Positions 29,501 through 47,440 of a stretch of DNA of 64,000 nt are shown piece by piece. The translations under genes were made by a program, and so were the position numbers. The stretch spans positions 22,001 through 86,000 of the IMG/VR virus record IMGVR_UViG_3300022939_001737, one strand, 5' to 3'. A model generated the notes under the pieces. The model saw only the letters and a list, made by a program, of their open reading frames with translations, was not told the origin of the DNA and did not search any database. This stretch comes from a virus. Position 1 is the first letter of the stretch, and each line of letters begins with the position of its first letter.

Positions 29501-32500
29501 GTATAGTTCCATACAATCCGTTATCTCTAACTAAACTAAATTCTGCATTAGTACCAACATTAGGATCATTTGCCCCAAAAACATCAATGTATATACCAAT
29601 AGGTTCGTAGCCTGTTCCGCTTGATGATACAGTAACAATTTCACCTTCGAGTAAGCTATTAACCCCTGTCACTGTAATTGTAACATCATTAGCAGGACTT
29701 TCTGCCCCGAATAATGTACCAGGTATAGTTAATTCTTGCCCTATATAGTAATTTTCGCCTCCGTTTACAAGATCAACTACATATACAGCATCATTCTGAC
29801 TTACATTAAATTCAGCGTCGGTTGGCGTTACATTACTTCCCGGTTGTCCTTGAGACGTTGCACCATTACTCGTAACACCACTCACTGTTGTTGCAGTGAT
29901 TTCTCCATTAGCACCTACATTATCAATTACAATAGTTACATCATTAGTCGGCGTTGCTCCGCCTACATCTGTACCTAGTACTGTAAAACTTTCTGTAGCA
30001 AGATAGTTTACACCTGTGTTATTGAATGTCACTTCATAGTTTGTGCCATTTACTCTTACATTAAAATCGGCGTTAGTACCCGAAACACTTGTTGTGCTGT
30101 ATGATACGCCATTATATGTCGTGTCTACATTAGGTGCAGTTCCAGCAAAACTTACGCTTGTAATTGCTCCGTTAGGGTCAACTGCATCAACACCTATTTT
30201 TAAAAACTGCAATGGATTAGCAGTTGCGGAAAATATGAATCCTTCAATCCTAATAACATCGCCTACTGCATATCCTGTACCTGCTTGACCAGATGATACT
30301 GTAACATTTGTAAAAACATTATTTAAAAACGTTACATCAAATGCAGCATCAGTTCCTGTGCCGCCTGTAAAAGTAGCTGATTGTGCAGGCAAGTATATGT
30401 CGTTGTTAAAGTGGGTTCCGCTTATTTCAACGCCGGTTGGCGCGATACTGTCAGCACTATCTAAAACTTCTATTACAGTAATTGTAGCATCGTTTTCTGG
30501 ACTTGTACCGCCTAAACTAGTTCCAGGAATAATAATTCTATCACCTACTTTATATCCTTCTCCGCCGTCGTTAGCTACAGCATCTACAACATATGTAAAG
30601 GAAGAATCTACAGCAAAACTAATATCAAATTTTGCATTCTCACCGTCTGAAGTATCATTTACACCTGTAACTCCTGTATAAGTAGTTCTGTTACCTATTA
30701 CTGGTTCAGTAAAGTTGCCACTAAATGTGATATCGTTGTTTGATATACTATCCACATAAATTGCGTAACCGTCACCTCTGTCTACCGCTAAATTCTCAAC
30801 TACTCCGGCTATATTACTTACTGTAACAGTATTATTTCCTGCCTGTACATCTCCTACAAGCGTTGGTGTTAAATATACTCCGCCGCCTTGTGATTGGTCA
30901 ATAATACCAGTAACCTGTGAACCTAAAGGAATTTGTCCGCCCACTGTTTCTAAGGGAGAACCAATTTCAGGTGCATCGTCGTCATAAGGAATAATTGTGC
31001 TCCCTGATAAAACAGCAAGTTCTGTAGTCATTGTACCTGAACTACCTTGACTTGCTACTGTCCAAGATGAGCCACCTATGTCAGCACCTGTATAAAATCC
31101 TGCTTCTCTTAGCTGAGTATATGTAGTAGACAGAATAGTACCTTGAACTGTACCAACCTTAGATTTTGCATAATATGTAAATTCATTATTGGATGGTACT
31201 GTAACAATAACAAACGAACCTTCTGCTCTTGCAGCACCATTTACACTATCTTCAAGTGCTTTTATAGTAATTGGTGTACCTGGTATAAACCCGTGCGGTG
31301 CAACAGTTTTGACTGTTATTAATGATTGACCTACACCTTGTGTTCCCGCTGATGCATCAGTAGTAACTTCTAAAACAGCAGTATCTGTTCCTGGTACTTC
31401 ATACACTGAAGGATAACCTCTTAGTGTACCAATTGCTGCCCATTTAGTAGGCTGTAAGCCGTACTCAAAGTCAGCGTCAAGCATAGATAGAGGTTGTGCA
31501 ATTCTATTACGTTCGATAGCATCAGTGCCAAAATCATAAGGTCGGGTTGTAACAACACTTCGTCCGTTTTCAATTTTTTCAACAAATACCTGTATTTCGT
31601 CGTCTACACTGTGTGAACTTGTATCATAGTTCAATTCAATAAGTGTAACTGCATCTGTGGTTTGTAGATAAAAAGGAAAGTCATCATCAGCTGAATTATT
31701 ATCCGTAATTCTAACTTTAGCACCTGTTTGTACATTAGTAAAGTTATACATAACTTCACTTCTTGTAGAGTTAGTAATTAAAAGTAGTTCATCTGCATTA
31801 TAACGACCTTGAATCTTTACATATCCTAATCCAATTGGTGCTAATACAGGTAAAGCACTTAATCCGTTTTCTATAACATCAACAGTATTAAATGCAAGTG
31901 TATTAATTTTAGCCGGAGCACCTGCTGTTATTGCACCAGCAGTAGCACTTACAAATGTGTGCAAGCTTGTATCTGAACTTACTCCAACATTTACTGTAAT
32001 AGTATTTGATGTTGTAGAGGTAATCTTAACTGGAGAATAGTAATATTTGTCTTTACCGTAGTCGTTAGGAACACCTGATGCTCTAGGATATGGATGAGTT
32101 GTTGCATTACCGTCTAATGCACAAGTAAATGTTATTCCAGCAGGTGCAATGTGTATTTCGTCGCCAACACTTAATGAGTGGCTTCCAATTGTTACTTCCA
32201 TAAATCCTGTTGAAGGATTATAGTTAGCACCTAAAGGTGTATAACTTAAATCTTGAACAGTTTTGGTTGTATCTATGGTTTGTGATACTTCTGTATTTAA
32301 TTTTGTATATACTGTATTTGTAAAAATATAATCGGTAATTAGAGTCCCAATAAATTCGTGTACATCTGTTTCGGGAGTCCTATCGCCATCAATTTGAGCA
32401 ACACCTTGATCCCAATAATATTTGATTGTATTTTTTAAAGTTTCATTGCCGCCATATCTTAAATCTTCTAAGTATGCATCAATTACATAACCAACATCTC

Positions 32501-32699
32501 TTTCGCATTTTTCTGCATTGTAAGTATATCCTACATAACCAACTTGTCCTTGATTAACTTTGTTTTGAATAAATGCATTTGCTTCTTTTTGTATAAAAGT
32601 TTTGTTAGAACTTAATAGTGAGTATGCATCAGGAAATAAATTATCTAATCTTCCTAATCCTGGTTTGAATACATAATTTTTTATTTGTGTCTTCGCCAT
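26550..32699 (-). CDS. Very large virion structural/fibre protein (2049 aa)
   Basis: N-terminal KCERD helical domain, DADFEYGLQ.TKW, five GxGY..GD.I.I.G..GG..P.ND.TI.V repeats, and C-terminal YQ.GKG / WYGAG domains. Confidence 0.75.
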   Translation of the reverse strand: MAKTQIKNYVFKPGLGRLDNLFPDAYSLLSSNKTFIQKEANAFIQNKVNQGQVGYVGYTYNAEKCERDVGYVIDAYLEDLRYGGNETLKNTIKYYWDQGVAQIDGDRTPETDVHEFIGTLITDYIFTNTVYTKLNTEVSQTIDTTKTVQDLSYTPLGANYNPSTGFMEVTIGSHSLSVGDEIHIAPAGITFTCALDGNATTHPYPRASGVPNDYGKDKYYYSPVKITSTTSNTITVNVGVSSDTSLHTFVSATAGAITAGAPAKINTLAFNTVDVIENGLSALPVLAPIGLGYVKIQGRYNADELLLITNSTRSEVMYNFTNVQTGAKVRITDNNSADDDFPFYLQTTDAVTLIELNYDTSSHSVDDEIQVFVEKIENGRSVVTTRPYDFGTDAIERNRIAQPLSMLDADFEYGLQPTKWAAIGTLRGYPSVYEVPGTDTAVLEVTTDASAGTQGVGQSLITVKTVAPHGFIPGTPITIKALEDSVNGAARAEGSFVIVTVPSNNEFTYYAKSKVGTVQGTILSTTYTQLREAGFYTGADIGGSSWTVASQGSSGTMTTELAVLSGSTIIPYDDDAPEIGSPLETVGGQIPLGSQVTGIIDQSQGGGVYLTPTLVGDVQAGNNTVTVSNIAGVVENLAVDRGDGYAIYVDSISNNDITFSGNFTEPVIGNRTTYTGVTGVNDTSDGENAKFDISFAVDSSFTYVVDAVANDGGEGYKVGDRIIIPGTSLGGTSPENDATITVIEVLDSADSIAPTGVEISGTHFNNDIYLPAQSATFTGGTGTDAAFDVTFLNNVFTNVTVSSGQAGTGYAVGDVIRIEGFIFSATANPLQFLKIGVDAVDPNGAITSVSFAGTAPNVDTTYNGVSYSTTSVSGTNADFNVRVNGTNYEVTFNNTGVNYLATESFTVLGTDVGGATPTNDVTIVIDNVGANGEITATTVSGVTSNGATSQGQPGSNVTPTDAEFNVSQNDAVYVVDLVNGGENYYIGQELTIPGTLFGAESPANDVTITVTGVNSLLEGEIVTVSSSGTGYEPIGIYIDVFGANDPNVGTNAEFSLVRDNGLYGTILTTNTGQDYKIGDRIIISGNTLGGISPLNDLTIRVSGVDGTGGVTGFTPDFIEASRGTNFDLISTVQMSEATTADMPRLTDIDFGSLATLEIEFTSAHGLVPGGTFIVSVGSDDGNNNHDLAAGSFFVTDVPTVNSLRYQARAEGFIDTGTNNADPILGIVYPRPDSFFIHRPYDGGVQLGTGGPQHGAQAIRQSKKYIRYQSGKGIMYTTGALFAPSYDLRSLTADGVEVGSLITVVTDDNDHGVQSGGIVRLLGVETPGYNSGPETAVPPTFDYEVVDVLDERTFTIRAQRRLGATEAVLGFGSQMSVVSWHGATVRSGIFDDQNGIFWEFDGTQISVVQRTGTRQLAGTVAIGVDSNLITGTNTRFVDQLKAGDRIIIKGMTHVVTHVNDQTECTVTPDFRGVVDITGAKINLVVDKKVKQSEFNLDRLDGTGPSGYDIDIAKMQMIGIQYSWYGAGFIDFMLRGSDGNFVFCHRMRNSNVNTEAFMRSGNLPVRYEVTNEGPSGKLAAALNDTDTVMTLEDTSFFPEYGTVYIDNEIIDFTGKNDTLNQLTGLIRGATFENFQAGANRQYTAGLAANHDARTGVVLISQTITPLISHWGSAFLTDGGFDEDRGYIFSYTETALEMSTSKQTAFLIRLSPSVSNALVGDLGERELLNRAQLLLQELEVTSEGQSSGTPIEGGIVVEGVLNPKNYPTNPADILWQTLSTEAQGGQPSFAQIAAGASVNWSTGASAVVTTVTAQSAITTGILASQTNTDDNFRLQGASYSTNGPILIGSVTGGTNGDGGTIPAATVERVRQRNNGNWEIDTNNDVNYFYSGDTVTFTFGGNLTNRNFAYITKASFDASGATQGTSVTGGSVTFPANTFISNISLLNHGGTEFYRITFNNSFTGTLNAGSGTIQFTQLEPPYAQPGETIFSFIAQPGERATVDFSELKELTNTPLGGRGTYPNGPDVLALNVYKVSGADTTGNLILKWGEAQA
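29390..30620 (-). repeat. Five ~90-aa beta-rich protein repeats inside the 2049-aa protein (approximate limits)
   Basis: GGEGYKVGDRII, AGTGYAVGDVI, TGVNYLATESF, GGENYYIGQEL and TGQDYKIGDRII units, most followed by P.ND.TI.V. Confidence 0.65.
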
Positions 32700-32702
32700 T
32701 AC

Positions 32703-33596
32703 TTATAATCCAAATGCTATAGATAGTGCTAGTGCTGTACTATCAGTGTATTGTTTGTTTGTTATATCTTCGTCCGCTGTCGGTGTCGCAGTAACCTTTG
32801 CTGTGCTAAATGATGCAGCAGCCGGTGTAATTGCTCCAATTGTACTGTTATTTATTGTACTATCAATTATTGTTCCTGACAAGCCGGTTGAACCTATTTT
32901 TGATATTTCTTGTCCTTCTATTCGCAAAGATATTTCGTTTACTGCCTCTAACTCTAAGTTATTAGAGGATGCTAAACTTGTAATTCCTGTGCCGCCTACA
33001 TTCAGTGATCCGCCGATATATAAATCTTTTTCAATTCCTAATCCGCCAGCTAACGTTACTGAGCCAGTAGTAGGAGAGGTCGAATTTAAAACATCAGTTA
33101 CACTTATTGTTCCAAATCTTCCTATTGGATCAACAACATTTATGACACCAAAATTAGTACGATTTGTATCTGTATAATACAGCGTATCTGGAGCATTCAA
33201 CGGTATACTAAATCTTAAAGTACCGTCGTTCTTTCCCTGAGCGTCAGATCCTGTTGATCCGTCACTGTGAGAGATGCCTGTGTTGTATAAACCAGAATCT
33301 ATTTGGTTTCCTGAAACTATAAAAAAGTTTAGTACAGGAACATCAAGAGCAAAAGTATATACTGATTGCCTAGCAACACTTATAGAAGGATTTGTGCCCG
33401 TAGCTTCTGCTATAGAAAATGAGTTAGTTTGTGTATCTACTGTTACGGTGAAATCAACAATAGTTACATCGTCATCGTCGCCTGGAGTAGTTGCTGTGAT
33501 AATACTATTTGCAATAATATTACCTTCTTCATCTACAGTGAATCCTGGCCCTTTGAAACCATATTTTGATTCAAACGGTGAATTAATTACAGCCAT
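32703..33596 (-). CDS. Virion fibre-associated protein
   Basis: PF.S.YGF start, APDTLYY...G.INV small domain, TG.V...GGLGI.KDLYIGG fibre motif, and NK.Y.D..A.AL.IAFG end. Confidence 0.6.
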   Translation of the reverse strand: MAVINSPFESKYGFKGPGFTVDEEGNIIANSIITATTPGDDDDVTIVDFTVTVDTQTNSFSIAEATGTNPSISVARQSVYTFALDVPVLNFFIVSGNQIDSGLYNTGISHSDGSTGSDAQGKNDGTLRFSIPLNAPDTLYYTDTNRTNFGVINVVDPIGRFGTISVTDVLNSTSPTTGSVTLAGGLGIEKDLYIGGSLNVGGTGITSLASSNNLELEAVNEISLRIEGQEISKIGSTGLSGTIIDSTINNSTIGAITPAAASFSTAKVTATPTADEDITNKQYTDSTALALSIAFGL

Positions 33597-33620
33597 TATT
33601 ACTCTCCTATATGTTATTTA

Positions 33621-34040
33621 TCAGACAATAGGAGGAGTAAGTGTGTGAAAATATTGTCCTGTGAATATAGCTTTGGCGCCAGTAAAGTTTGTTCCAAGCT
33701 CTGTATCTATAACCGGAGTAAGATTTACATCAACATAACTGTCATTAACTGTTACTTCGACTTCTACAATGTCATTAAGAGTATTATTTCTTGCAAATAC
33801 TACAACACTTGCTCTATCAATACTAGCAGTAACTAATGCTTTAAGTATTTCTTTGTTGTCTCTATCAAAGTCTACACTTATAGTATATTCAACTGTTGCA
33901 AAATCGCCAACGTGCCATCGATCTATGCGTGTAGAACCATAGATTTGTTTCCAGGGACCTTTATGACTTAATCCTGCGTTATTTCTAAATAATACTGTGT
34001 TTTTCATTCCTTTTGCTAGGAATTTTTTTAGATCTTGCAT
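33621..34040 (-). CDS. Hypothetical beta-sandwich virion protein
   Basis: 139-aa ORF with its own late promoter motif (34065-34071). Confidence 0.55.
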   Translation of the reverse strand: MQDLKKFLAKGMKNTVLFRNNAGLSHKGPWKQIYGSTRIDRWHVGDFATVEYTISVDFDRDNKEILKALVTASIDRASVVVFARNNTLNDIVEVEVTVNDSYVDVNLTPVIDTELGTNFTGAKAIFTGQYFHTLTPPIV

Positions 34041-34070
34041 TATGATACCTTGCTATTGACACAGTATTTA

Positions 34071-35864
34071 TCAGTTTTTTACAGTTATTAATTTTCCGTA
34101 TTCGGGCAAGTAAAGATATTCTATTCTACTATTAACTAAAGTACGTACAGCATCATCTAGAGTTTCCACTAAAGGTTCGCCGCCTAAATTGAAACTAGTA
34201 TTGAAAATAATTGGACAACCTGTGCGTTCTTTAAATGCTTTAATTATATTGTAATAGTTTTCATTCTGTTCTTTATTCACTGTTTGTATGCGACAAGTTC
34301 CGTCTACGTGAATAATAGCAGGTATTTTTTCTTCAACACCGGGTTGACAATTTACAGCATACATCATTGTAGGCGACGACTTCATACCGCGTAGATCAAA
34401 CCATTCGTGTGCATCTTCTTCTAGAATTGATCCTGCAAACGGACGAAAGTACTCTCGACGTTTGACTTCGTTTACAAAATCCTTACCATTAGGATCTGTT
34501 GGATCATACATAATACTTCTGTTACCTAAAGCTCTTGGACCATTTTCACTTTTACCTTGAAACAGTGTAACGATATTTCTATCAACCATTAAGTTAATTA
34601 TATCGTCTTGTGAGGCATCAACTATACCGGCATTATACTTTTTCACAACACTTTCGATTTCAGAATCGGTATAGCAGTATGCCGGACCGTAGTAAACTGT
34701 TTCTGCTTGTGGTTTAACTGTAGTATCACCGGTAGTATTGTGATGCCAAAGTAAAGCTGCACCCATTGCTGTGCCTGCATCATTAGAAACAGGCTCTACA
34801 TAAATTTCAATTCCTTCGTCTTTTAATTCGTTAAGGTAATAATAATTTGCTACACAATTTAATCCATAGCCGCCACTTATAACAACTTTTTTACAATCAC
34901 TTAGTTCAACAGCGTGTCTAATTAAATCTGCTACTGCTTTTTGTGATTCTGTTTGTACAGCATACGCCATATCTCTTCTATTATCTAAAGTGGTTATGTC
35001 ATCTGCTTCATAGTTTTGTAAGTACTTGTACATATTTGCATTTACAACAGCACCGTTAGGATATCTTGGTAGTATTAAATTTCTATTTGTTGTAGGAACT
35101 ATACAATCATTATCTTCTATAATTTCAGGAAATTCGTCATTAGGTTTTCCGTAAGGAAATAGTCCCATAGTTTTACCTGCTTCAATACTGCTCCAACCAC
35201 AATATTCTGTTACTGCTTCATATGCTTTTACAATACCTGCTTTGTCTGATAAGGACAAATTAAATTTTGCGTCTGGTTCCCAATCTCCGCCACTAAAATC
35301 CGGAAGATAAACATTAACCAACATATTTCTTGCACCCATTGTTTTGTGCAGTGTTTCGATATTAGCAGGATATGTGCATTTGTAGATACTTTCAGTTTCA
35401 TATACAGTCATACTTTCGTCTCCTATTGTAAGAGGAAAGAAAGTTCCTGCTCCATCAACAATTACTGCAACTGCTTCTTCAAAACCACTATTATAAAAAG
35501 CAAGTCCAGCGTGTAACTTATGATGGAACATTGCCATATCAATCACTTGCGGGTGACCGTCATCCGAATGAGGTAAATCTTCGATTAAACCTATTTTTCT
35601 AGCAAGCCCGGTGTAAATATCTTCACCGGTATAATCAAGTTGTCCCGCACCATTAAGTGGTGTAGTATGTGCAACAACCAAATAATCAATTTTATCTGTA
35701 TACTCTTTAATTGCAAGAATAGATGCTAGAGGTCCACCGTCGTACTTTTTTCTTGTAAGTCTTTCTTCTTCTATACTAAAAACTATCTCGCCATCTTTTA
35801 GAAGACAAACTCCTGCGTTATGTCCTCTTGCAATGCCTGCTATCCAAACTGGACTATTTTCCAT
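34071..35864 (-). CDS. O-carbamoyltransferase (NodU/CmcH/TobZ family)
   Basis: HNAG, EEERL.R.K, HH..HA, DG.G, GK.MGL..YG, GG..LN..AN, E.GPRALGNRS, RE.FRPFA, HVDGT.R.QTV and NTSFN..GEP. Confidence 0.93.
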   Translation of the reverse strand: MENSPVWIAGIARGHNAGVCLLKDGEIVFSIEEERLTRKKYDGGPLASILAIKEYTDKIDYLVVAHTTPLNGAGQLDYTGEDIYTGLARKIGLIEDLPHSDDGHPQVIDMAMFHHKLHAGLAFYNSGFEEAVAVIVDGAGTFFPLTIGDESMTVYETESIYKCTYPANIETLHKTMGARNMLVNVYLPDFSGGDWEPDAKFNLSLSDKAGIVKAYEAVTEYCGWSSIEAGKTMGLFPYGKPNDEFPEIIEDNDCIVPTTNRNLILPRYPNGAVVNANMYKYLQNYEADDITTLDNRRDMAYAVQTESQKAVADLIRHAVELSDCKKVVISGGYGLNCVANYYYLNELKDEGIEIYVEPVSNDAGTAMGAALLWHHNTTGDTTVKPQAETVYYGPAYCYTDSEIESVVKKYNAGIVDASQDDIINLMVDRNIVTLFQGKSENGPRALGNRSIMYDPTDPNGKDFVNEVKRREYFRPFAGSILEEDAHEWFDLRGMKSSPTMMYAVNCQPGVEEKIPAIIHVDGTCRIQTVNKEQNENYYNIIKAFKERTGCPIIFNTSFNLGGEPLVETLDDAVRTLVNSRIEYLYLPEYGKLITVKN

Positions 35865-35866
35865 AT

Positions 35867-36715
35867 TTAATAACCTCTATATGTTTTATCAAAATTGCTT
35901 AATTCTCTATACAACACATCACCATACATTTGTAAATCGTCTATGTTTTGTTTTAATGCATCGCACGTATTAACACAATCTTTTTGTTCTAACGTTAATT
36001 TAGAATTATCTATATTCAAACTTGGTTTTAATACATTATATAACCAATCTATACCTAGAGCAGGTGACGGATGTGGATCTATAAAATCTTTCCATTCATA
36101 TAACAGATCTTGACTTTTCCAACAATATAACCCTATTGGGTCTACCCAATTTTTATTGTCTAATATTTTTTTGTATGGTAAAAAATCTAAATCTTGCCAT
36201 AAATTTATATTACTATTTTGTGCCTCACCATAACTGGAGGGAATATTATAGTCTGAACCTAGTTTTGCAAAGTCCCCTATCGTTGTCATTTTCCAATTAC
36301 AATCTGTAGTTTCTAATAGTTTTATTGTACTATAGATTGCATTCAATGTCAACATTACATAAGATTTTTCATCAAAAAAATTATCAATCCATTTTTTATC
36401 ATAAAGATCTTTATTCGTATATGAAAATAGGCCGCCTTTCGTTTTCCAATTATATTCAGTATCTCTGCCTTTTGGGGGTTGTCTAAACATATGATAATCA
36501 TTACGTAAATGGCTAGTCCATTGAACTACAACAATATCATCTTTTGTAAAATTATTTTTTAAATTACATTCTGCAACTCTATTGGATATTGCAACATTTC
36601 CTATACCGGGTACACCCCAATTTTCAAATTGATCAAATTCTAATCCAAATAAATCTGCATAAGAAGGCCAGGCATAGTTAGTAAAACTACAGCCAAATGT
36701 GAAAAGTCTTTCCAT
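35867..36715 (-). CDS. SGNH/GDSL-like hypothetical protein
   Basis: FGCSFT..WP, N.G..G.GN..I, V.QWT...R and D.HP (DxH). AT-rich. Confidence 0.55.
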   Translation of the reverse strand: MERLFTFGCSFTNYAWPSYADLFGLEFDQFENWGVPGIGNVAISNRVAECNLKNNFTKDDIVVVQWTSHLRNDYHMFRQPPKGRDTEYNWKTKGGLFSYTNKDLYDKKWIDNFFDEKSYVMLTLNAIYSTIKLLETTDCNWKMTTIGDFAKLGSDYNIPSSYGEAQNSNINLWQDLDFLPYKKILDNKNWVDPIGLYCWKSQDLLYEWKDFIDPHPSPALGIDWLYNVLKPSLNIDNSKLTLEQKDCVNTCDALKQNIDDLQMYGDVLYRELSNFDKTYRGY

Positions 36716-37647
36716 TATTTTAAAGCAGTCTTTACCTCTTTCACAATTACATCTTCTATCTTTTCATTCATTGCCATTACGCCTTCGTTCTGTCTATCAA
36801 CATATTCATCTACTGTAATTCTTATAGGAGAGTATATTCTTACACCTTCTCCCATATCTAGTATTTTAAATTTTTCCTCATTCGGATAAGAAACATTTTG
36901 TTCAAATGTACTTCCTAATATTACAGTAGCATTTTTTTCAAATGAGTATGCAATATGCTGACCTACACTATCACAACCTAAAAAATGATCTGCTTGAGCA
37001 ATAATTGCACTCCATTCTCTTAGTCCAATACCTTGGGGTATAGCAATAGGTTCTGTAATTCCGTGTTTTTGAAATTCAAATGCAATTTCGCCCATATATA
37101 CAACAGCAAAATCTTTTGTAAGTTTTTTTACTAGACTTAATACATTTTCTGGTTCGAAACTTCTGCCACTAAAATCAGTGATCATACCATTTTCGTTAAA
37201 CACTCCGCGGCCAAAAGGTTGAAATACAATTACTTTATCTTTTTTTGTTTTTTCTTTAACGTCTTTTATAACTTGAGCTCCAGCAATTTTTTCTTGTTTG
37301 CTTAAAACTATTTTTGGTCTAGGTAAGTCTCTTATACCTTTATCATTGATAGCAATATCATATGCTTCTGCTAAACTTGCTTTTTGATTATAGTATTCCC
37401 AAACACGGTATGGCTCAGGACTAACTAGATCCATATCTTTCAATTTGTCTTCAAACAAATTTTTATGCCAAACATCATATGCCTTTGCGTGTAACAAAGG
37501 ATGTCCTTTATAAAAGTCAGTGCCGCCCTCGCATACAATAATAAAATTGTTATCTGGGTTTTCTTCAGCAAATTTTTCTAAAGCAGGTATTGAACAAACT
37601 ACTCTCCCTGCACCACCGTTTATAAAAAAGGCTTTATCTCTTGACAT
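36715..37647 (-). CDS. Glycosyltransferase family 9 (heptosyltransferase)-like
   Basis: GG.GR.VCS.PAL N-terminus, IVFQPFG, and W.AII..AD.FLGCDS..QH.A (GT9 GxDSxxxHxA motif). Confidence 0.7.
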   Translation of the reverse strand: MSRDKAFFINGGAGRVVCSIPALEKFAEENPDNNFIIVCEGGTDFYKGHPLLHAKAYDVWHKNLFEDKLKDMDLVSPEPYRVWEYYNQKASLAEAYDIAINDKGIRDLPRPKIVLSKQEKIAGAQVIKDVKEKTKKDKVIVFQPFGRGVFNENGMITDFSGRSFEPENVLSLVKKLTKDFAVVYMGEIAFEFQKHGITEPIAIPQGIGLREWSAIIAQADHFLGCDSVGQHIAYSFEKNATVILGSTFEQNVSYPNEEKFKILDMGEGVRIYSPIRITVDEYVDRQNEGVMAMNEKIEDVIVKEVKTALK

Positions 37648-37680
37648 ATTTTAAAATCCTATCTAAGTAATGTACGCACT

Positions 37681-37688
37681 TATTTATA
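37681..37688 (-). promoter_or_regulatory. T4-type late promoter for the GT9-SGNH-carbamoyltransferase operon
   Basis: TATAAATA on the minus strand, just downstream of a terminator-like hairpin. Confidence 0.7.
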
Positions 37689-37716
37689 GGTGATTTTTAT
37701 TTGGTGTAGTCAAAGT

Positions 37717-37739
37717 GAAAGGCGCTCAAGGCGCCTTTC
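37717..37739. terminator. Hairpin ending the fibre-tip operon
   Basis: GAAAGGCGC-TCAAG-GCGCCTTTC. Confidence 0.6.
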
Positions 37740-37760
37740 TATTTAAGTATAAATTAGTAA

Positions 37761-38723: not shown

Positions 38724-38736
38724 ATTAAAATCCTAT

Positions 38737-39516: not shown

Positions 39517-39526
39517 ATCGTATTCC

Positions 39527-40279
39527 TTAACTCGCTACCGGATAATATATTGTTACCAATCCGCCTGCGCCATATTGTCCGCAGTATAATGTATTATCGT
39601 GACTTACAGCACTTGCTCCGCCGCCGCCGGGCCAATGTGGATCTCCACCTAGTTGTGTGCCGCAACCCTGACGACAGTAGCTCATTGTTCCTCTGTTACC
39701 TCCTGGTGTAAATGGTGCGCTTGGCATAAATCCGAATGCGTTTTGTGAACAAAAGCTATTTCCTTTTGCACTACCTGACATTCCGCAAAGTCCCATACCG
39801 CCTGTCCAGCTGCCGCAAGCAAATCCTGAGCATCCTTGACAATTACAACCAATCATAAAGTAACAGCGTGTGCCGCCTTGGCCGCCACCGCTTGCACAAG
39901 CAATTACCGAACCACCGTTAACTGCCATAAAACTAGGATTGCCCATACAACCGCAACAGTAACTTTGTGAACATCCTGTAGTTCCCGCTGCACATATTGT
40001 GTATTGTGCGCCTTCTGATACACCTTTTTCAAATTTTCTAGCATAAGAGCCTGAACCACCAGGCCAGCCAGCTCTACAGCAGCACGTTCCTGCGCCGCCG
40101 CCACCGCCGCCCCACATTTCAACAGCAAACCAATTTACACCTGCAGGCACTGTCCATAAGCAGCAAAACCCGCCATTGCTTTGTGTAGTTTTATTTGAGT
40201 TAAAAACGTGAAATTCAGTAAAAGCAACCGAACCTGCTCCACCTTCTCCAACCTGTAGTAGATCTCTTAAACCGGCCAT
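39527..40279 (-). CDS. Cys/Gly-rich fibre-tip (adhesin-like) protein, paralog 2
   Basis: CCLWTVPAGV...EMWGGGG, ~21 Cys, and GAGGLVTIYY. Confidence 0.65.
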   Translation of the reverse strand: MAGLRDLLQVGEGGAGSVAFTEFHVFNSNKTTQSNGGFCCLWTVPAGVNWFAVEMWGGGGGGAGTCCCRAGWPGGSGSYARKFEKGVSEGAQYTICAAGTTGCSQSYCCGCMGNPSFMAVNGGSVIACASGGGQGGTRCYFMIGCNCQGCSGFACGSWTGGMGLCGMSGSAKGNSFCSQNAFGFMPSAPFTPGGNRGTMSYCRQGCGTQLGGDPHWPGGGGASAVSHDNTLYCGQYGAGGLVTIYYPVAS

Positions 40280-40930
40280 TTATTCGCTCCCTGGTTCTCT
40301 TGGCATTTCTACCTTCCACGCTGCAATTTCATCTGCTGTACCATAACCGAATGTAGCAGGTAAATCTCTTAATTTTTGTCTATAATCAATCCACGGTTGC
40401 TTGATTTCATCTGGCATATCTGGAGATATTTTTCCGTCACTGCCTTCTAATGCACCGTTTCTTCCGTTAAGCACATCTTCCCAAGTAAAAGGTTCACCTT
40501 TCATTGGTCCTAGTGTCCAGCTTGAGCCGTCGTGTACTAATTCGTCTTTATTATATGTTTGACTCAGTCTAGCTACTGCTTCAAACTCTATAACTGTACC
40601 GTCTGGTAAAGTTTCTTGTGTAACTGACTCGTCTGCGTATGTAACTTTATCTTCGCAAATGATTCCCATAATCACAGGATCGTCAGCAGCTACTACTTCT
40701 ACTCGTCTATGGTTTACTGGTACAGGTACTTCTGCACCATCTTCCATTGTAGTCAATACAGGTTGTATTTGACTGAATGCTCCAGTATCTTCGTGTACAA
40801 ATATCCAAACTCTGTCTGGTCCTGTATAAGTTGCTGATGCTGTTAGTCCTGCATCTGTGGTAGATGCATACAACTCGTCAGCAATATTGTACGTAAAGTT
40901 TACTGTTGTTTCTGTAATTGGTGTTGGCAT
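40280..40930 (-). CDS. Tail-fibre assembly chaperone-like protein
   Basis: W..V...RN..L..SD....DMP......W.DYRQKLRDLP. Confidence 0.7.
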   Translation of the reverse strand: MPTPITETTVNFTYNIADELYASTTDAGLTASATYTGPDRVWIFVHEDTGAFSQIQPVLTTMEDGAEVPVPVNHRRVEVVAADDPVIMGIICEDKVTYADESVTQETLPDGTVIEFEAVARLSQTYNKDELVHDGSSWTLGPMKGEPFTWEDVLNGRNGALEGSDGKISPDMPDEIKQPWIDYRQKLRDLPATFGYGTADEIAAWKVEMPREPGSE

Positions 40931-40943
40931 CTTTTTCTTTCCT

Positions 40944-41696
40944 TTAAGTATATGAAACTTTTATCATTCCACTAGCACCGTGTTGTCCGTAACAACGTCC
41001 GTCACTACAGGCTCTACCTGTTGATCCAGCACCTGCTGGATTACTAGGAGGTGAACACATATAGTAAACGCCCGATCCTGATGGTTCTTTAGCGCAGTAT
41101 TGTGCAGTTTGTCTATCTGCTTGGAATCCTCCGGAGGTCCAGGTTGATATGTCACTTCTGCAATAACAATTTATATAACTGATGTTTCCTGTTCCGTCCA
41201 TTACAACATCGCCTAAGCCAGTTCCTGATAGTAATCCCCAGCAGCATATATATCCGTAACAAAATCCGCCTCTTGTCATATCAGAGCAGCCGCCGTTTCC
41301 GCCAAGGGCACATCCTATTGTTCCACTTGTTTGTATATCATAAACATAACTTGGTTGCGCTCTAGGTGAGATTCCACAGCAACCATTACAGTCACTTGAT
41401 CCGCCTGCGCAAAGCCTGTATTGACATCCTTCGGCTGTGGCGATAGAAATTTTTGCATATGAACCGCCTGTTGGCATTGTGCCAGCACGTTCACAACATC
41501 TAGCTCCCTGACCTATACCGCCTGATCCCCACATTTCAAATGTAACTCTGGATGTGCCTGCAGGCACTGTCCAAAGGCAGCAACAACCTCCGCTGTTTGC
41601 TCCATTATCATTTAATCTGTGAACATAGAAAACTCTATTAGGATTTCCTATTGACGGCGGTGATTGATCTGAAAGTAGTGTACGTAAACTTGGCAT
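40944..41696 (-). CDS. Cys/Gly-rich fibre-tip (adhesin-like) protein, paralog 1
   Basis: CCCLWTVPAG...FEMWG.GG, ~21 Cys, and G..GMIKVSY. Confidence 0.65.
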   Translation of the reverse strand: MPSLRTLLSDQSPPSIGNPNRVFYVHRLNDNGANSGGCCCLWTVPAGTSRVTFEMWGSGGIGQGARCCERAGTMPTGGSYAKISIATAEGCQYRLCAGGSSDCNGCCGISPRAQPSYVYDIQTSGTIGCALGGNGGCSDMTRGGFCYGYICCWGLLSGTGLGDVVMDGTGNISYINCYCRSDISTWTSGGFQADRQTAQYCAKEPSGSGVYYMCSPPSNPAGAGSTGRACSDGRCYGQHGASGMIKVSYT

Positions 41697-41697
41697 C

Positions 41698-42036
41698 TTA
41701 TGTTCCTGAAATTACCCATCCATATGTAGCGCCAGTGTAAATTAAAATTGGTGCTGAGTTGTTAATGTCTATACTCAAATCATCTGCTGCGCCTTGGATA
41801 TTTGCTCCGTTCCTACCAACAGTAATTGCTGATGAACCTGCATTTCCTCCTACGTCAACAATTTGAACAGTATCTCCGTCTTGTAGTGCTCCGCCATCTG
41901 CTGTAGTATTTGGTAGAGTAACAGTAATGCCTCCGGCAGTACAAAGTACTCTATCATTAACACTTGCGCTATAGCTTACACCGGTAGAAACTGTACTAGT
42001 TGAGTATGTTAAAGTGTTTGTAATGTATCTTCCCAT
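41698..42036 (-). CDS. Small fibre connector domain protein
   Basis: ITVTLP....GD.V.IVD..G......ITV.RNG..I.G...DL...L.Y....GW; start at MGRYIT after late promoter 42059-42065. Confidence 0.6.
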   Translation of the reverse strand: MGRYITNTLTYSTSTVSTGVSYSASVNDRVLCTAGGITVTLPNTTADGGALQDGDTVQIVDVGGNAGSSAITVGRNGANIQGAADDLSIDINNSAPILIYTGATYGWVISGT

Positions 42037-42061
42037 AACAGTTTGTCCTTTATTAATGTAT

Positions 42062-42379
42062 TTATGCAGATGTCTCAATTCCAAAGGCAACGCAACTTAC
42101 GTTAGCTTGAGAGGAATATATGACAATCTTTTGTGTTGCAGCAAGCACTATACCAGTTCTTTCTAGTACGTTTTTGGGTAATAGTTCTGTTTGATATTCT
42201 ATATACTCGCCGTTTGTTGGTGTCGCTAAATCTGCAATTGCTAAATTAACAGTAGTAGGCTGGCTACCCCTGTTAACAATGTTAACACTCGCCACAGTAT
42301 ATGTTTCTGCTGGGCAAGTATAGACAGTTGTATTAGTTGCTGCAGAAATATCTTCACCTGCTAGTCTACCTGTGGCCAT
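42062..42379 (-). CDS. Small beta-sandwich virion protein (paralog family with 53128 and 59926)
   Basis: TVYTCP....V..VNI.N, G.VL...QKI and G.E pattern. Confidence 0.6.
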   Translation of the reverse strand: MATGRLAGEDISAATNTTVYTCPAETYTVASVNIVNRGSQPTTVNLAIADLATPTNGEYIEYQTELLPKNVLERTGIVLAATQKIVIYSSQANVSCVAFGIETSA

Positions 42380-42394
42380 TTTTATATGTCTCCA

Positions 42395-45300
42395 TTATTG
42401 TTGTAAAAAGTAATTCAACGCAACAGGATCACCTGAGATTCCGCCGGTATAATTTACTTTCTGTAATATATTTATCTGAACACCAGTTGTAGTTGTAATT
42501 TCTTGTCCTGAAATAAACACACTACCAGCTGTAATACTGTTGACGTTCAATTCGCCTGCACCACCACCTATCTGTGAAGCGATGTATGTTTTAATTGCCT
42601 TTTGTGTAGGTACAATGTTATCACTGTTAGCAGTAAATGTACCATCTACGCTAAATTCAGTAATTGTTGCACCTGTGCCGCCTAATTCTAATTGTCCTAG
42701 TGTAAGTTCTTGTAGTCCTGAAATATTGAATGCATCTGCATTTAGAGTTGCAATACCAGTTGACTGTTCAACGTTAAACAATCTGCCCACTCTAAAGTTA
42801 CCATCTTGGTCAGTGGATGTGTAGAACACTCTACCACCACCGCCAACAACAACTTCATATTCTGCATCAGGAGAATTCGCTGGTGAGTTAGGGTAGTTTG
42901 TATCAGCAAAGTTACCAGTACCGATATCTAGGAAATCGTGTCCTGTCAAACGTACTTGAGAATAACGTATTCTCATCTCAATCGCTTCAGCGTGTTCAGG
43001 AGCTTCTGTCACTGTCAAATCTGGTGATAGTTGAAGTTGTGCTGTATAAGGACCTGTGCCTTCTAAATCTCTCACAGTAACCAATTTAAAGTATTGATTA
43101 GGCAAGCCACTAAATGTAATATTGGAGCCTGCCTTGGGTTCTTCCGTTAAACCTTCTACTCTTATCAAGTTTCCTGGTTGATATCTATCCATAAAGCCGT
43201 CACCAACAACTTCAGCAGTTGCAGTAGCCATTGCAGTACCTCTACTTGTCCAAGTTGGCTGGCTTAGTACGCCATCTGCAATTCTAACTTCGTGAGGTAC
43301 ATCTACAGTATTGTTTGGATCTACAATTGTCATATTAGGAGCAGTTACATAACCTGTTCCTGGATCCCAAATTGTAATAATTACAATTTTACCATCTTCT
43401 ACTATAGCTCTTCCTTTAGCAGTATCAGCATATAGTCCGCTTCCTGGAGCATCAAAATCTACATATGGTTCAATACTATAGTTTGTGCTATCGTCAAGTG
43501 TTGCTTCAATAGCTGCGCCTGTTAAGTGATCCCAACCTGCTGTACCATCGCTTGCTTTTACAATCGTTGCAACTTTTGTACCAGAATTATATGTATCAAT
43601 TATACCATACTGTCCTGCACCGCGTCCTGCTGTCAAATAAATTACCATTCCTATATACTGACTACTAAGTCTAGAATCAGTGTTAGATAAAGTAATTTGT
43701 GTATTGGTACCAACCTGAGCAACATTTTCAGCACTGATGTAATCTGCGCCGCCAAAATCTTCGTTGGGATCAGTAAGTCTAACTTCAAATACGCCGCCAT
43801 TTGATATATTTGCGTTTGCAACTGATGCACCAAAGCCCTCGCCTGTTACTGTAAATCTTGTAGCATCTCCGACAGTTGCAACATCAAATGTTAGATCTGC
43901 ACCTCCGCCGTTGCCTAGTTGCGCATCAGTGACCGTAATTGTATCTGTAGCAACGTGTCCGCTGCCTCCTTTTAAAATTTGAATTATTGCGCCACCTACA
44001 TCATCAACAACAATTCTAAACTCTTGTCCTGTTCCTGCACCTGAACTAGTACCTGCTACTGTGTATGTGCCGGTTGTTCTATTACTATCTGCTACACCTA
44101 TATTGTTTACAGTAATAATTGCGTCAGTTGCAGTTGTGTAGTCTTGTCCTGCATTCAAATATTCTAATGTTAGTATTTCATTACCATCAGTAAATACTCT
44201 TTGTATTGTTGCATCGAAGTTTCTGTTTGTAACAGTACCAGTAACTGGTACTTCCGTTACATCTACACCTTCAGCAACAGTACCAAATGCACCATAGGAT
44301 GAGTTACCATTTGTAGCACGTATCTTGCCGCCGTTTTCTGCAAGGTAACCAATGTGTGCATAGTATGAGAACACGGAAACAAGTTCTGTTCTACCTAAGT
44401 TTGTACACCATACACCAATGCCATCGCTTACAAGTTGTGTAAAGTCGTTTGCAACAATAGAATCGTTGCCGCCATCGTGTAAATCACCGTCAATTTTACA
44501 TCCAACGCACCCTGTACCGAATGTTGTAACATTTTGCACATAAGGTGATTTGTTTATAATCCACGCATCAACGTGGGCGGGGCCCCAACCTGGATCAAGG
44601 CTAACAAAAGCACCTGCTGTAGGACGTTTAGTACCGTAACCGTTAATAGTGCCTAATGTACCGGTAAGTCCTAATACTGTACAGTTTCTTAAGCCTGTGC
44701 CGTTTCTCACATAGAACATATCTTCAGTCAAGCTACCGTCAACTGCATTTGAATAATAACGTGCATACAGTAAAGATTTATAGTTACCTGTATAAATCAA
44801 ATCGTGTTTAATAGCATCAATGTATCTATGAATGTCTCTTTCGCACTTAGCAACATTATATACATATGCAGGATATGTTGCTGCAATATACGCTGTTACT
44901 TCTGCAACTAAAAAGGCTCTGTTTGCTTCTAAAACTTCTACAGCATAAGTGTAATCTGTTGTTGTGTTAGGAGTGTTTGAACCTGTTGTAGCAGGAACAG
45001 TAGAATCGCCTGTTACACCATTTGCTCTATAATCTATGTAATCATAAATTTGTTGCCAAAGTTCAGCTGCATCTGTGCCAGCCTGAGCAGATCCTGCTGG
45101 ACGAGTTGTATCTTGTGTTTCAGCATTTCCTGCACTTGCTGTTACTGCAACATTGGTTACAACATCGCTTGTAATTGATTGCAGCCTTGAAATAGCATCT
45201 AGCGTATACGGAGTATCTGTACTGTCAACTAAAACTCCTGCTGGTTTAATTCTAGTTGAACGTAATTCGTCTCCTATTACTGCTGTATTTTCAGGAACAA

Positions 45301-47440
45301 TTATTGGAAGGACTTCTTCAAATTCTCCTGTTTTTACAAAAATTGAATTCTGTGGTTTACGCTCTGCCGGAACAGCATCTGTATTGCCCGCTGTAATAGC
45401 ATCAGTTATAATATTAACTAGCGTTTCTAAAGTTGCTTGTGCATCTGCTTCTTCAATTAAAGAACTATCTTGTACTTGCGCAATAGATCCATATTTTGTT
45501 CCTGTGTCAGTGCCTATTAATAAGTCAGACAAAATTGCATCTGCTAATGTTTTAATGTAATTTAAACCGTCTGCTGTCTCTGTAGCATTATCAGCTAGAT
45601 AAGTTTGTCCGTCTGCGCTAAAATATGCTACTGCTGCATCTCTCGAACGCTCGTTACCACCGTGTGATAGATCCCATATTAAAGCGTCAACTACTTGACC
45701 TGTGTCTCTACGACATTTAACTTTGTCGTATACACCTACTAGTGCAGGATATGTTGCATCAATATATTCTACAACTTCTTCCTGGATAAAAGCTCTATTT
45801 TTCTCTAGTAGTTTTTTGGCGTTGTATCTAAGAGCACCTGCTTGTACTTGTTCAGTTGCATAACGAATTGTTTTAAAAGGTCTGTCTAGTGTAACTCCGT
45901 AACTAGGAGCAGGTTCGTCTACGCCGCCGCTGCCTTCTACATAAAATACATTGTTGATAGCACCAAAGTTAGTCCATTCAGGAGCAGTTGCAGTATCGTT
46001 TACTTTTAATACTTGACCTGGTTGTCCTATTCCTAATCTTACAGGTCCTGCGCCGCCATAATAAACTATGTCACCTTCTGTAGTAAGGTTACCTGATTCA
46101 GCACCAGCTGTCAGCAAATTCCAATTGATACCCGTAACATCCTGATCTGGTCTATTTTGTGTAACAGTCTCGTCAGCAGTGTGTGCATATACACAAACAT
46201 AAGTGTTTACACCGTGTTGTACAGAATCGCCCGCGTCGTAGAAAGTACCGTCTGCCCACGTACCTTTCCATTCAAAGCCTTCGTTTAATCTTTCCCAATA
46301 AGTTGTCCACGTTGGATAATTGTCTGTATCGCCAGGTCTTTGAGCTGTGTGTTTTAGAATACACAAATAAGTATAACCGCCTAAACGAACAACATCGCCT
46401 TCAATATACTCACGATTGGTACTATCATCGTCCCAGTCGCCTATAAATTTAAATCCTGTTGTATATAAGTCCCAATCGTCTATATTGTCGCTAGGTTTCT
46501 TTGCTTGGTTATTTGTAATTGCAATATATGAATAACCTCCATATGTAACAAAATCTCCTGGCTGATATGCTTTACCTACACTCCAGGTATCTTCAAATTC
46601 TAGAGATTCAACAAATTGTGCCCAGTTAGATTCGTCTGCTGCTAAATTTGTGCTTCCTGCTGTGTGGTAAGTTGTACAAATCCAAAGTCCGCCACCGTAT
46701 TTCACAACGTCATTAATTCTGTACCTTGTACCAGCAGTCCAATTTGATCTATATTCTATTCCTTTGTGTAGATAATCCCACTTTGATTGATCAGTTTCAA
46801 GGCCGTCTGCAACTGTTGCAGCACTAGTATGTCCTTGGTTGGCAACATACAAAGTTCCGCCGTATCTGACAACATCATTTACTCTATATCTTGTTCCTGG
46901 CAACCAATCATTTGTCCAGTAAAATCCTTCTGAGAAAATATTCCATTTGGCTTGATCTACTTCCAAACCGTCTGCAAGAGTAGCAGCACTTGTATGCTCC
47001 TCGGTACAGATAAAAATTGTACCGTTGTATTTTACAATGTCGTTTATTTTATATCGTGTTGCTATTGCCCAATCAGTTTTATAATCAAAACCTTCTGCAA
47101 ATAAATCCCATTTTGTTTGGTCTAGTTCTAACCCATCTGTAAGATTTGCAGCAGAAGTGTGTGCTTCGTTGGCAATATAAAGGTATCCACCGTATTTTAC
47201 AATGTCATTTACTTTATAATATGTGTTTGTTGTCCAGTCGGATTTCCAATCTGTACCATCTGTAATTTTATTCCAATAGTCAGCTTGGTCAGTTGTAAAT
47301 AAAGCAGGAGCAGTATGACCTGCAATACACACAAACGTATTACCACCATTACGGACTATATCATCCTTGTAGTAGATTGTAGAAGCGGCCCAGTCGCCCT
47401 TCCATATAAATCTAATTCTACCTAACTTAAACTCTGCCAT
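42395..47440 (-). CDS. Giant fibre/spike protein (1681 aa): W-rich repeats, beta-helix-like domain, two KCxRD domains
   Basis: MAEFKLGRIRF.WKG.W; tandem W....Y..ND.V.YGG..Y repeats; SPYVQNVTTFG, ANDFTQ, SQVRLTGHDFLDIGTG and GGGRVFYTSTDQDGNFRVG. Confidence 0.8.
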   Translation of the reverse strand: MAEFKLGRIRFIWKGDWAASTIYYKDDIVRNGGNTFVCIAGHTAPALFTTDQADYWNKITDGTDWKSDWTTNTYYKVNDIVKYGGYLYIANEAHTSAANLTDGLELDQTKWDLFAEGFDYKTDWAIATRYKINDIVKYNGTIFICTEEHTSAATLADGLEVDQAKWNIFSEGFYWTNDWLPGTRYRVNDVVRYGGTLYVANQGHTSAATVADGLETDQSKWDYLHKGIEYRSNWTAGTRYRINDVVKYGGGLWICTTYHTAGSTNLAADESNWAQFVESLEFEDTWSVGKAYQPGDFVTYGGYSYIAITNNQAKKPSDNIDDWDLYTTGFKFIGDWDDDSTNREYIEGDVVRLGGYTYLCILKHTAQRPGDTDNYPTWTTYWERLNEGFEWKGTWADGTFYDAGDSVQHGVNTYVCVYAHTADETVTQNRPDQDVTGINWNLLTAGAESGNLTTEGDIVYYGGAGPVRLGIGQPGQVLKVNDTATAPEWTNFGAINNVFYVEGSGGVDEPAPSYGVTLDRPFKTIRYATEQVQAGALRYNAKKLLEKNRAFIQEEVVEYIDATYPALVGVYDKVKCRRDTGQVVDALIWDLSHGGNERSRDAAVAYFSADGQTYLADNATETADGLNYIKTLADAILSDLLIGTDTGTKYGSIAQVQDSSLIEEADAQATLETLVNIITDAITAGNTDAVPAERKPQNSIFVKTGEFEEVLPIIVPENTAVIGDELRSTRIKPAGVLVDSTDTPYTLDAISRLQSITSDVVTNVAVTASAGNAETQDTTRPAGSAQAGTDAAELWQQIYDYIDYRANGVTGDSTVPATTGSNTPNTTTDYTYAVEVLEANRAFLVAEVTAYIAATYPAYVYNVAKCERDIHRYIDAIKHDLIYTGNYKSLLYARYYSNAVDGSLTEDMFYVRNGTGLRNCTVLGLTGTLGTINGYGTKRPTAGAFVSLDPGWGPAHVDAWIINKSPYVQNVTTFGTGCVGCKIDGDLHDGGNDSIVANDFTQLVSDGIGVWCTNLGRTELVSVFSYYAHIGYLAENGGKIRATNGNSSYGAFGTVAEGVDVTEVPVTGTVTNRNFDATIQRVFTDGNEILTLEYLNAGQDYTTATDAIITVNNIGVADSNRTTGTYTVAGTSSGAGTGQEFRIVVDDVGGAIIQILKGGSGHVATDTITVTDAQLGNGGGADLTFDVATVGDATRFTVTGEGFGASVANANISNGGVFEVRLTDPNEDFGGADYISAENVAQVGTNTQITLSNTDSRLSSQYIGMVIYLTAGRGAGQYGIIDTYNSGTKVATIVKASDGTAGWDHLTGAAIEATLDDSTNYSIEPYVDFDAPGSGLYADTAKGRAIVEDGKIVIITIWDPGTGYVTAPNMTIVDPNNTVDVPHEVRIADGVLSQPTWTSRGTAMATATAEVVGDGFMDRYQPGNLIRVEGLTEEPKAGSNITFSGLPNQYFKLVTVRDLEGTGPYTAQLQLSPDLTVTEAPEHAEAIEMRIRYSQVRLTGHDFLDIGTGNFADTNYPNSPANSPDAEYEVVVGGGGRVFYTSTDQDGNFRVGRLFNVEQSTGIATLNADAFNISGLQELTLGQLELGGTGATITEFSVDGTFTANSDNIVPTQKAIKTYIASQIGGGAGELNVNSITAGSVFISGQEITTTTGVQINILQKVNYTGGISGDPVALNYFLQQ

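Follow-up and report, generated by a model that had tools for sequence, protein, structure and literature searches.

Phycobiliproteins are known as cellular light-harvesting proteins, and the question raised by the locus described here is whether a relative of theirs, together with its pigment attachment site, has been built into the tail proteins of a phage. The locus lies in a stretch of viral DNA of 64,000 nt, positions 22,001-86,000 of the IMG/VR record IMGVR_UViG_3300022939_001737 (hereafter, the window). A first-pass annotation had proposed that two giant virion proteins encoded in the window contain three copies of one helical module of ~150 aa, each with a K-C-x-R-D motif corresponding to the chromophore site around Cys84 of phycocyanin alpha. 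The two genes, taken from the list of open reading frames (ORFs), are:

26550..32699, minus strand: P0001, virion structural protein of 2049 aa (phrog_5838 'virion structural protein', E 9e-251)
42395..47440, minus strand: P0002, tail fibre/tailspike protein of 1681 aa (phrog_9851 'tail fiber protein', E 2e-227)

Translation of the minus strand yields three 22-residue KCxRD...GN stretches (32445-32510, 45653-45718 and 44783-44848), all with K-C-x-R-D and exactly as annotated in position and sequence, and no further in-frame C-x-R-D site of this kind was found in the six frames of the window. In a blastp comparison P0001 matched both copies of P0002 (E 1.9e-9 and 2.1e-8), which identifies the copies as true paralogues of one module rather than motifs that recur by chance. 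Hidden Markov models (HMMs) of the two module halves (N-half, the helices up to F; C-half, the G and H helices) matched the window copies at E 1e-21 to 1e-30, with no other match below E 0.06 over the window, so both searches bear out the idea of one module repeated in two giant virion proteins. The proposed size of ~150 aa holds for the canonical copies but not for the third one (44783-44848), whose C-terminal half lies upstream of its N-terminal half.

Relationship of the module to phycobiliproteins

Two profiles were compared with the PDB: A1, made from the three window copies and also searched against 1.84 billion representative proteins, and A2, a 50-row alignment of full module units. 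Phycobiliprotein chains made up 18 of the 20 A1 matches, at sub-threshold E-values (0.11-1.2), and phycocyanin alpha 32 of the 37 A2 matches, with a best E of 0.0022. Both profiles aligned the module Cys on Cys84, which supports the correspondence claimed for the motif. The Arg and Asp of this phycobiliprotein site contact the bilin. Additionally, the phycobiliprotein family model PF00502 passed its 22.2-bit cut-off in each of five relatives with several modules, scoring 26.3-38.7 bits (E 8.5e-6 to 1.2e-9) as the sum of weak stretches, and is precomputed on 47 of the 120 longer relatives listed. When single modules were taken alone, PF00502 was found at E<=1 in 13 of 50 (best 5e-5) and any other family in at most 2 of 50.

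The predicted structures led to the same family. An AlphaFold2 (AF2) model of the module (m856a3eb577ff; A2 alignment with P0002 aa 530-700 as target) has six helices, with a pLDDT of 91.6 and a pTM of 0.88. All but one of the matches listed by Foldseek against the PDB were phycobiliproteins (E from 1.7e-3, TM 0.53-0.68, ~155-168 columns); the exception, at rank 12, is titled 'Bacterial fluorescent protein'. VIA-align, a method independent of Foldseek that was run on 48,161 representative chains, gave phycobiliprotein or phycobilisome chains in all of its top 8 rows, with Z 15.6-12.6 and a root mean square deviation (rmsd) of 2.0-2.6 Å. The best of them was phycoerythrin beta (Z 15.6, rmsd 2.2 Å over 146 of 171 residues), followed by far-red allophycocyanin (Z 14.4) and the bilin-binding domain of ApcE (Z 13.7, rmsd 2.2 Å, 116 residues), and lower ranks were taken by the photocobilin globin domain 8j2w (Z 11.3) and then by globin-coupled sensors (Z 11-8). 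Phycobiliproteins were again the best matches of a second model made from a different alignment (Z 14.8-12.7).

Several results weigh against this relationship. The alignment of A2 to the PDB is limited to profile positions 6-61 (helices B and E); the window's own proteins and modules gave no PF00502 match at either E<=1 or E<=10, a 12-bit IBN_N match being the only Pfam match of the window modules at E<=10; an ESM Atlas feature search gave only phage-tail clusters with scores (<=0.80) within noise; and, as a caveat of the structural tool, helical models can reach Z ~14 through a common arrangement alone. Whole P0001 and P0002, when compared with PDB sequences by phmmer, returned only noise and matches of carbohydrate-binding module (CBM) type. 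The resemblance might be due to chance, a coincidence of a short motif to which AlphaFold added a memorised phycobiliprotein fold. The lack of significant Pfam matches in the window's own modules and the marginal PDB E-values, even the best, would fit this explanation, and AF2 training included many phycobiliprotein structures. However, PF00502 owes nothing to AF2 and still exceeds its curated threshold in every relative scanned, the structural match covers ~146 of 171 residues and so extends beyond the motif helix, the two models from different alignments agree, and helix order, helix length and the G-G turn all coincide with those of phycobiliproteins. We consider a chance resemblance close to negligible. 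In the models the structural ranking is family-specific, in agreement with the sequence evidence and despite the caveat on helical arrangements. All these data, from profile searches, PF00502 in the relatives and two AF2 models, support the globin/phycobiliprotein fold that had been proposed, and indicate that the module is very probably a diverged branch of the phycobiliprotein superfamily, homologous to it and of the same fold.

Conservation and joint loss of the site

The A1 search found 1322 proteins at E<=0.001, including 477 at E<=1e-30. The best 150 of the 1322 are 830-6382 aa long, with up to 36 matched stretches per protein, and hold ~1600 domain instances (1625 in the hmmsearch alignment used for the site counts). 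The unit is ~110-165 aa long, and the spacing from copy to copy has a median of 158 aa and falls into two classes, ~108-120 and 145-165 aa. A search for free-standing modules of similar length gave only 12 matches (87-307 aa), mostly on contigs of ~1 kb, which offers no evidence that the module exists as a separate protein.

When the C, R and D of the motif were followed across phage homologues, as the first-pass annotation had suggested, they were kept in 93%, 93% and 96% of the 1625 instances, together with a later Asp (98%) and a Tyr (95%). Neither of the outcomes that would have spoken against the proposal at the level of sequence and fold, an unrelated predicted fold or a Cys that is not conserved among homologues, was observed. 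Scoring at all three positions was possible for 1598 instances, among which 1478 have the full triad and 85 lack C, whose commonest replacements are F (23), T (14), S (12), Y (9), A (7) and W (6). Loss of the other residues is coupled to that of C: R is lost in 2.3% of the copies with C and 53% of those without it, D in 0.07% and 35%, Tyr in 0.8% and 25%, and the later Asp in 0.4% and 2.4%. The Fisher p-values for coupled loss with C (~1e-41 and 1e-40) are overstated because the instances are related to each other and were found with an HMM that contains the motif; this phylogenetic dependence of the counted instances, and the reward that the search HMM gives to the motif, weigh against reading the counts as evidence of a selected site. 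In close orthologues of P0002, with 49-96% identity across the entire aligned stretch, the Cys is lost in 8 of 26 copies of the second module and 11 of 37 of the third, usually alongside R and D, and the neighbouring helix stays conserved. Because the rest of the module is conserved when the Cys is lost, the triad is unnecessary for the fold. As judged from these alignments, it decays fast once selection relaxes and yet is actively maintained in most copies, and the joint loss of Cys, Arg, Asp and Tyr points to a putative working ligand site.

In the explanation that we propose the module is a phycobiliprotein-type globin that phages repeat within, or insert into, giant proteins of the tail fibre, tailspike and baseplate, and selection keeps its Cys84-type bilin site (K-C-x-R-D ... 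G-G), acting on Cys, Arg, Asp and the downstream Tyr as one unit. From such joint selection we infer that most copies may bind a linear tetrapyrrole at the conserved Cys, for which the chances seem to us about even; attachment would probably be by a thioether to this Cys. In the main rival explanation the module is a true phycobiliprotein relative that carries no pigment and was co-opted as a stiff helical bead or spacer with which fibres are extended and decorated. The four site residues would then form a polar cluster in the interior or a contact between modules, and the coupled loss of the four residues, counted above in favor of a ligand site, could alternatively reflect a buried polar network. 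The use of the module as a building block, in up to 36 copies per chain and at the two periods given above, agrees with this, as does the persistence of Cys-less copies in the orthologues. On the other hand, conservation of the chromophore-contacting K-C-x-R-D at 93-96% where overall identity is ~15% would be unexpected in a purely structural element, folding does not depend on the triad, as copies without it are otherwise conserved, and a single unpaired Cys conserved in each module of an extracellular protein, with no second conserved Cys, is not what a scaffold usually has. Use as scaffold only is, in our view, a distinct possibility.

The site could also bind another ligand, for instance a metal, a different cofactor or a component of the host surface, and the module would then be a fibre domain for receptor binding or regulation. 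The modules are found in receptor-binding proteins, beside carbohydrate-binding CBM_5_12 repeats and a tailspike beta-helix (see below), their site behaves as a single functional unit, and globin-fold sensors with other ligands rank next in the structural comparison (Z 11-8). Nevertheless, what is conserved is precisely the set of residues that makes up the bilin site of phycobiliproteins, the invariant columns show no heme-ligating His pattern, and we found no known precedent, which makes another ligand improbable.

Modules within P0001 and P0002

The arrangement of the modules was resolved with the half-module HMMs (half HMMs) and with an AF2 model built on an alignment of P0002 orthologues (631 aa, pLDDT 80.2, pTM 0.79). 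The elements are:

32196..32633, minus strand: module 1 (P0001 aa 23-168), canonical half order, KCERD site at 32445-32510 (half HMMs)
46121..47398, minus strand: array of CBM_5_12 carbohydrate-binding repeats at the P0002 N-terminus, ~aa 15-440 (PF02839; approximate limits)
45836..45958, minus strand: first strands and cap helix of a right-handed beta-helix in P0002, ~aa 495-535 (AF2 model)
45344..45826, minus strand: module 2 (P0002 aa 539-699), canonical order, inserted in the beta-helix, KCRRD site at 45653-45718 (half HMMs, AF2)
45218..45343, minus strand: beta-helix strands separating the two inserted modules, P0002 aa 700-741 (strands at model residues 219-254)
44984..45217, minus strand: C-half of module 3 (G-H helices), P0002 aa 742-819, upstream of its N-half (C-half HMM, E 2e-10)
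44747..44962, minus strand: N-half of module 3, P0002 aa 827-898, KCERD site at 44783-44848 (N-half HMM, E 1e-21)
44372..44716, minus strand: continuation of the beta-helix body, P0002 ~aa 909-1023 (strands from model residue 430)

Module 1 opens P0001, with its N-half at aa 23-100 (E 1e-24) and its C-half at aa 104-168 (E 1e-13), and an A2 profile search of the record also finds this position. P0002 begins with the CBM_5_12 array, which scored 148.4 bits in 8 stretches (PF02839, cut-off 26.2, E 5e-44) and whose sequence matches in the PDB are chitin-binding domains of deacetylases. Strands and cap helix (a strand at model residues 19-22 and a helix at 46-55) are then followed in the P0002 model by module 2 with its six helices (half HMMs: N-half aa 539-610, E 1e-30; C-half aa 616-699, E 2e-18), by four strands and by four long helices, after which comes a beta-rich body. 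The C-half of module 3 contributes helices at model residues 261-331 (block pLDDT 87-97) and gives an A2 match that spans query positions 81-156, and its N-half contributes helices at model residues 349-422. In VIA-align, phycobiliproteins matched residues 55-205 of this model, and alginate/pectate lyases and phage tailspikes spanned residues 16..544/568, among them the alginate lyase 6kfn (Z 13.0), the tailspike of cyanophage Pam1 (12.5) and Pel9A (12.1). As only ~146-179 residues are aligned in the lyase and tailspike matches, both helical inserts are skipped. The evidence on P0002 thus strongly supports a fibre in which eight CBM_5_12 repeats are combined with a tailspike beta-helix, and in which two phycobiliprotein-like modules are looped out of this beta-helix. 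The permuted half order of module 3 places both ends of this module at the F-G loop, and its C-half and N-half may, we infer, pack into one globin domain.

The order of the halves was followed in orthologues from an IMG/VR scan with P0002 aa 480-1200 (105 relatives, 76 loci kept). The N-half directly precedes the resumed beta-helix in 76 of 76 loci, and 52 of them end in the order C-half-N-half. The complete half orders are NCCN, as in the window (26 loci), CN (16), N (14), NNCCN (6), NCN (4), NCCNCNN (4), NCCNN (3) and NCCNCNNN (3). Module 2 is missing in 11 of 37 aligned orthologues, and an FVKTG landmark in the strands between the two modules is kept across orthologues. The use of modules as insertions and repeats in receptor-binding virion proteins is strongly supported, and the variable copy number, with eight architectures among 76 loci, is also what a scaffold or spacer would show. 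In some orthologues the module itself carries a nested insertion of ~75-80 aa, rich in beta structure, between its first helix and the Cys helix (module 2 in loci L026 and L030, module 3 in L084, L094 and L052).

Regarding the neighbouring genes, the fibre protein of 1752 aa encoded next to P0002 (47478-52736, minus strand) has 8 CBM_5_12 repeats (149 bits) and fibre PHROGs in common with P0002, and the half-module HMMs found no phycobiliprotein-like module in it. Between the two giant genes there are a Nol-like carbamoyltransferase (34071-35864, minus strand, E 3e-159), a Gly_rich_2 domain protein (39527-40279, minus strand) and a protein with a phage tail assembly chaperone domain (40280-40930, minus strand).

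Phages that carry the module

The phage of the window is an aquatic jumbo myovirus and not a member of the Kyanoviridae or a classical cyanomyovirus. Its large terminase (7938-9518, minus strand) is closest to the Pseudomonas PA5oct group (52.7% identity), with Agrobacterium Atu_ph07 and Rak2- and GAP32-like phages also near and no cyanophage among the matches at E<=1e-100, and it has the T4-like parts UvsX, sheath and tube. CheckV estimates the 86-kb record to be ~25% complete, so that the genome is probably ~340 kb, and relatives in IMG/VR reach 357.6 kb, rated 100% complete. Neither the record nor five jumbo relatives gave a psbA/psbD family match, and all five relatives carry 4-10 module matches. 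A megablast of the P0002 gene against a phage collection gave no match.

Among named phages, tblastn with module 2 matched 257 records. Sorted by how the organism name begins, there are 204 Synechococcus, 42 Cyanophage, 10 Prochlorococcus and 1 Marine, and the genes matched carry annotations as tail protein, short tail fibre or gp7 baseplate wedge. With the A2 profile the module was found in 19 of the 20 Kyanoviridae-type cyanomyoviruses tested, and it was not found in the podovirus P-SSP7 or the pelagimyophages Mosig and HTVC008M. The exception, P-SSM2, had no module even by hmmsearch --max on six frames. When a multi-module relative was the query, non-cyanophage records matched solely its N-terminus, which is of the Mtd_N type. 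Many multi-module relatives (P0052, P0172, P0198; aa 5-45) begin with this major tropism determinant N-terminal domain, the only part that they share with the fibres of phages of Cellulophaga, Rhodococcus and Gordonia. In the podovirus S-SBP1 one tail fibre matches P0198 but contains no module, and it was rejected as a carrier.

Two structured RNAs were also found among the late structural genes of the window: a manA RNA from Rfam (61961-62167, minus strand; 79.3 bits, gathering threshold 55.2, E 1.6e-18), followed by a 'freshwater-2' RNA (61811-61893, minus strand; 73.9 bits, gathering threshold 49.9), which may hint at a non-marine sample. No tRNA genes were found in the window.

Bilin genes and CpeT

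If the modules are loaded with bilin, the pigment would be supplied during assembly by the host or by a phage heme oxygenase and bilin reductase, and the fibres would become pigmented. In this regard, adjacent genes for heme oxygenase and FDBR (bilin reductase) are present in two jumbo relatives, G001 (357.6 kb, 100% complete) and G003 (67%). The FDBR of G001 shares 54.8% identity with its counterpart in the pelagiphage Mosig and no more than 28% with cyanophage PcyA. In this part of G001 (C1:324000-335000; ORFs at 1080-3228 and 4920-8147, both on the minus strand) the gene pair adjoins ClpS, HSP20 and an IMPDH/GMP-reductase gene, and at a distance of a few kb there are curli genes (curlin repeat, CsgF, and CsgG at E 5e-50). 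In 21 named phages, module and CpeT occurred together in 15, the module only in 4, CpeT only in 0 and neither in 2 (Fisher p 0.07). S-SSM4 and ACG-2014d have two weak CpeT candidates each, below passing. In S-PM2 (NC_006820) a cpeT gene (163961-164470, E 1.8e-40) is found ~1.9 kb upstream of the first module match (region 166342-170301) in an ORF of 3792 aa; in P-HM1 and P-HM2 cpeT and the module-bearing ORF are far apart.

A number of observations weigh against a link between modules and bilins. There are no PF00502, PF05996, PF06206 or PF01126 matches in the 86-kb record (~25% complete), in which FDBR, CpeT and heme oxygenase are all lacking; this extends to the whole record the absence of bilin synthesis and lyase genes noted for the window. 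CpeT is absent from all five jumbo relatives, and 4 of the 19 named module-bearing phages have the module without this lyase. P-SSM2 has heme oxygenase and bilin reductase and no module, and the same is true of the pelagiphage Mosig with its heme oxygenase/PcyX-type cassette. Both kinds of case, modules in phages without detectable lyase or bilin genes and bilin genes in phages without modules, are in line with use as scaffold only. CpeT as an obligate partner of the module was rejected on the named phages and the jumbo relatives, and bilin genes as obligate partners on P-SSM2 and Mosig. S-PM2, in turn, has the module without FDBR and heme oxygenase. Overall the co-occurrence is mixed and leaves the link neither proven nor excluded, since bilins can also come from the host.

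Light-dependent adsorption

Passages of a study on cyanophage adsorption (PMC6628666) state that P-HM2 and P-HM1 fail to adsorb in the dark, and report the same for S-PM2, citing Jia et al. 2010, whereas P-SSM2 and P-SSP7 adsorb in the dark. In these passages photosynthesis plays no part in the effect, which may be seated in host receptors or in tail fibres, with light-sensitive tail fibres as one of the possibilities named (PMC6628666). We found 4 module matches in P-HM2, 4 in P-HM1, 9 in S-PM2 and none in P-SSM2 and P-SSP7, so that presence of the module is concordant with light-dependent adsorption in 5 of 5 phages. Against giving this much weight, the correlation is based on 5 phages and confounded by their relatedness, and 16 of 16 further Kyanoviridae genera also carry the module.

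The likeliest use of bilin-loaded modules would be, speculatively, in a light-responsive receptor-binding apparatus, although we consider it doubtful that pigment on the fibres makes adsorption light-dependent. The virion itself could then be a photoreceptor, in which light changes the conformation or the energy state of modules on tailspikes, fibres and baseplate and so gates adsorption; we hold this, too, to be rather unlikely. If true, it would explain the photosynthesis-independent, light-dependent adsorption of cyanomyoviruses such as S-PM2 and P-HM2 and would give a direct purpose to the heme oxygenase, bilin reductase (PebS, PcyA, PcyX) and CpeT genes of phages, including the hemO-pcyX cassettes in phages of hosts that lack antennae. 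Of the other uses suggested in the first-pass annotation, which included photoprotection, mimicry of the host antenna is unlikely, on general grounds, because phycobilisomes are intracellular.

Comparison with known systems

The module shares with the phycobiliprotein alpha and beta subunits (CpcA/B, CpeA/B, ApcA/B; PF00502) the globin-type fold and the K-C-x-R-D...G-G site, at an identity of only ~15%. It differs in its predicted lack of the N-terminal X-Y hairpin of the antenna subunits, since model residues 1..154 align to chain residues 27..184; the VIA-align alignments begin at chain residue ~27-49, and a unit of 110-165 aa placed inside other domains has no room for the hairpin. Moreover, it is never free-standing but forms part of virion proteins of 1000-6000 aa, as one copy, as tandem copies or as an insert, and this location in fibre, tailspike and baseplate proteins argues against an (alpha-beta)3 disc assembly. 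ApcE resembles the phage proteins in having a phycobiliprotein-type domain within a large multidomain polypeptide; unlike them, it has one such domain and serves as a cellular antenna anchor. ApcE attaches its bilin without a separate lyase, and its attachment Cys is located elsewhere than in the module site.

Globin-fold proteins that bind bilins for roles besides light harvesting are also known, namely the BBAGs and the photocobilin globin domain (8j2w), but these are cellular single-domain proteins and score below the true phycobiliproteins. BBAG globins or phytochromes are mentioned as possible partners of phage-made bilins in passages of PMC11480375, where the purpose of phage hemO-pcyX is left open, and those passages of the BBAG study of Rockwell et al. 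2023 (PMC10151467) that concern phages or viruses deal with reductases only. Lastly, the domain of P0002 into which modules 2 and 3 are inserted is matched by right-handed beta-helix tailspikes (cyanophage Pam1 7eea, gp49 of Acinetobacter phage Fri1, the tailspike proteins of CBA120) and by pectate/alginate lyases (Z 13.0-10), from which it differs by its two helical inserts.

Implications

We found no paper describing phycobiliprotein-like modules in phage fibres, in a literature search that left subscription journals and supplements outside. The window adds the occurrence of the module beyond the Kyanoviridae, in a jumbo-phage lineage that lacks psbA and cpeT, the pelagiphage-type hemO-FDBR pair in a complete jumbo relative, the modules as insertions in a tailspike beta-helix, and the decay of the site residues as a unit. 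A large, diverged branch of the phycobiliproteins inside the receptor-binding machinery of phages, with the pigment site kept, was unexpected. It bears on why adsorption of some cyanomyoviruses requires light but not photosynthesis by the host, and on what phage-made bilins serve for, and it makes the presence of pigment on the virus particle, and the response of that particle to light, experimentally testable.

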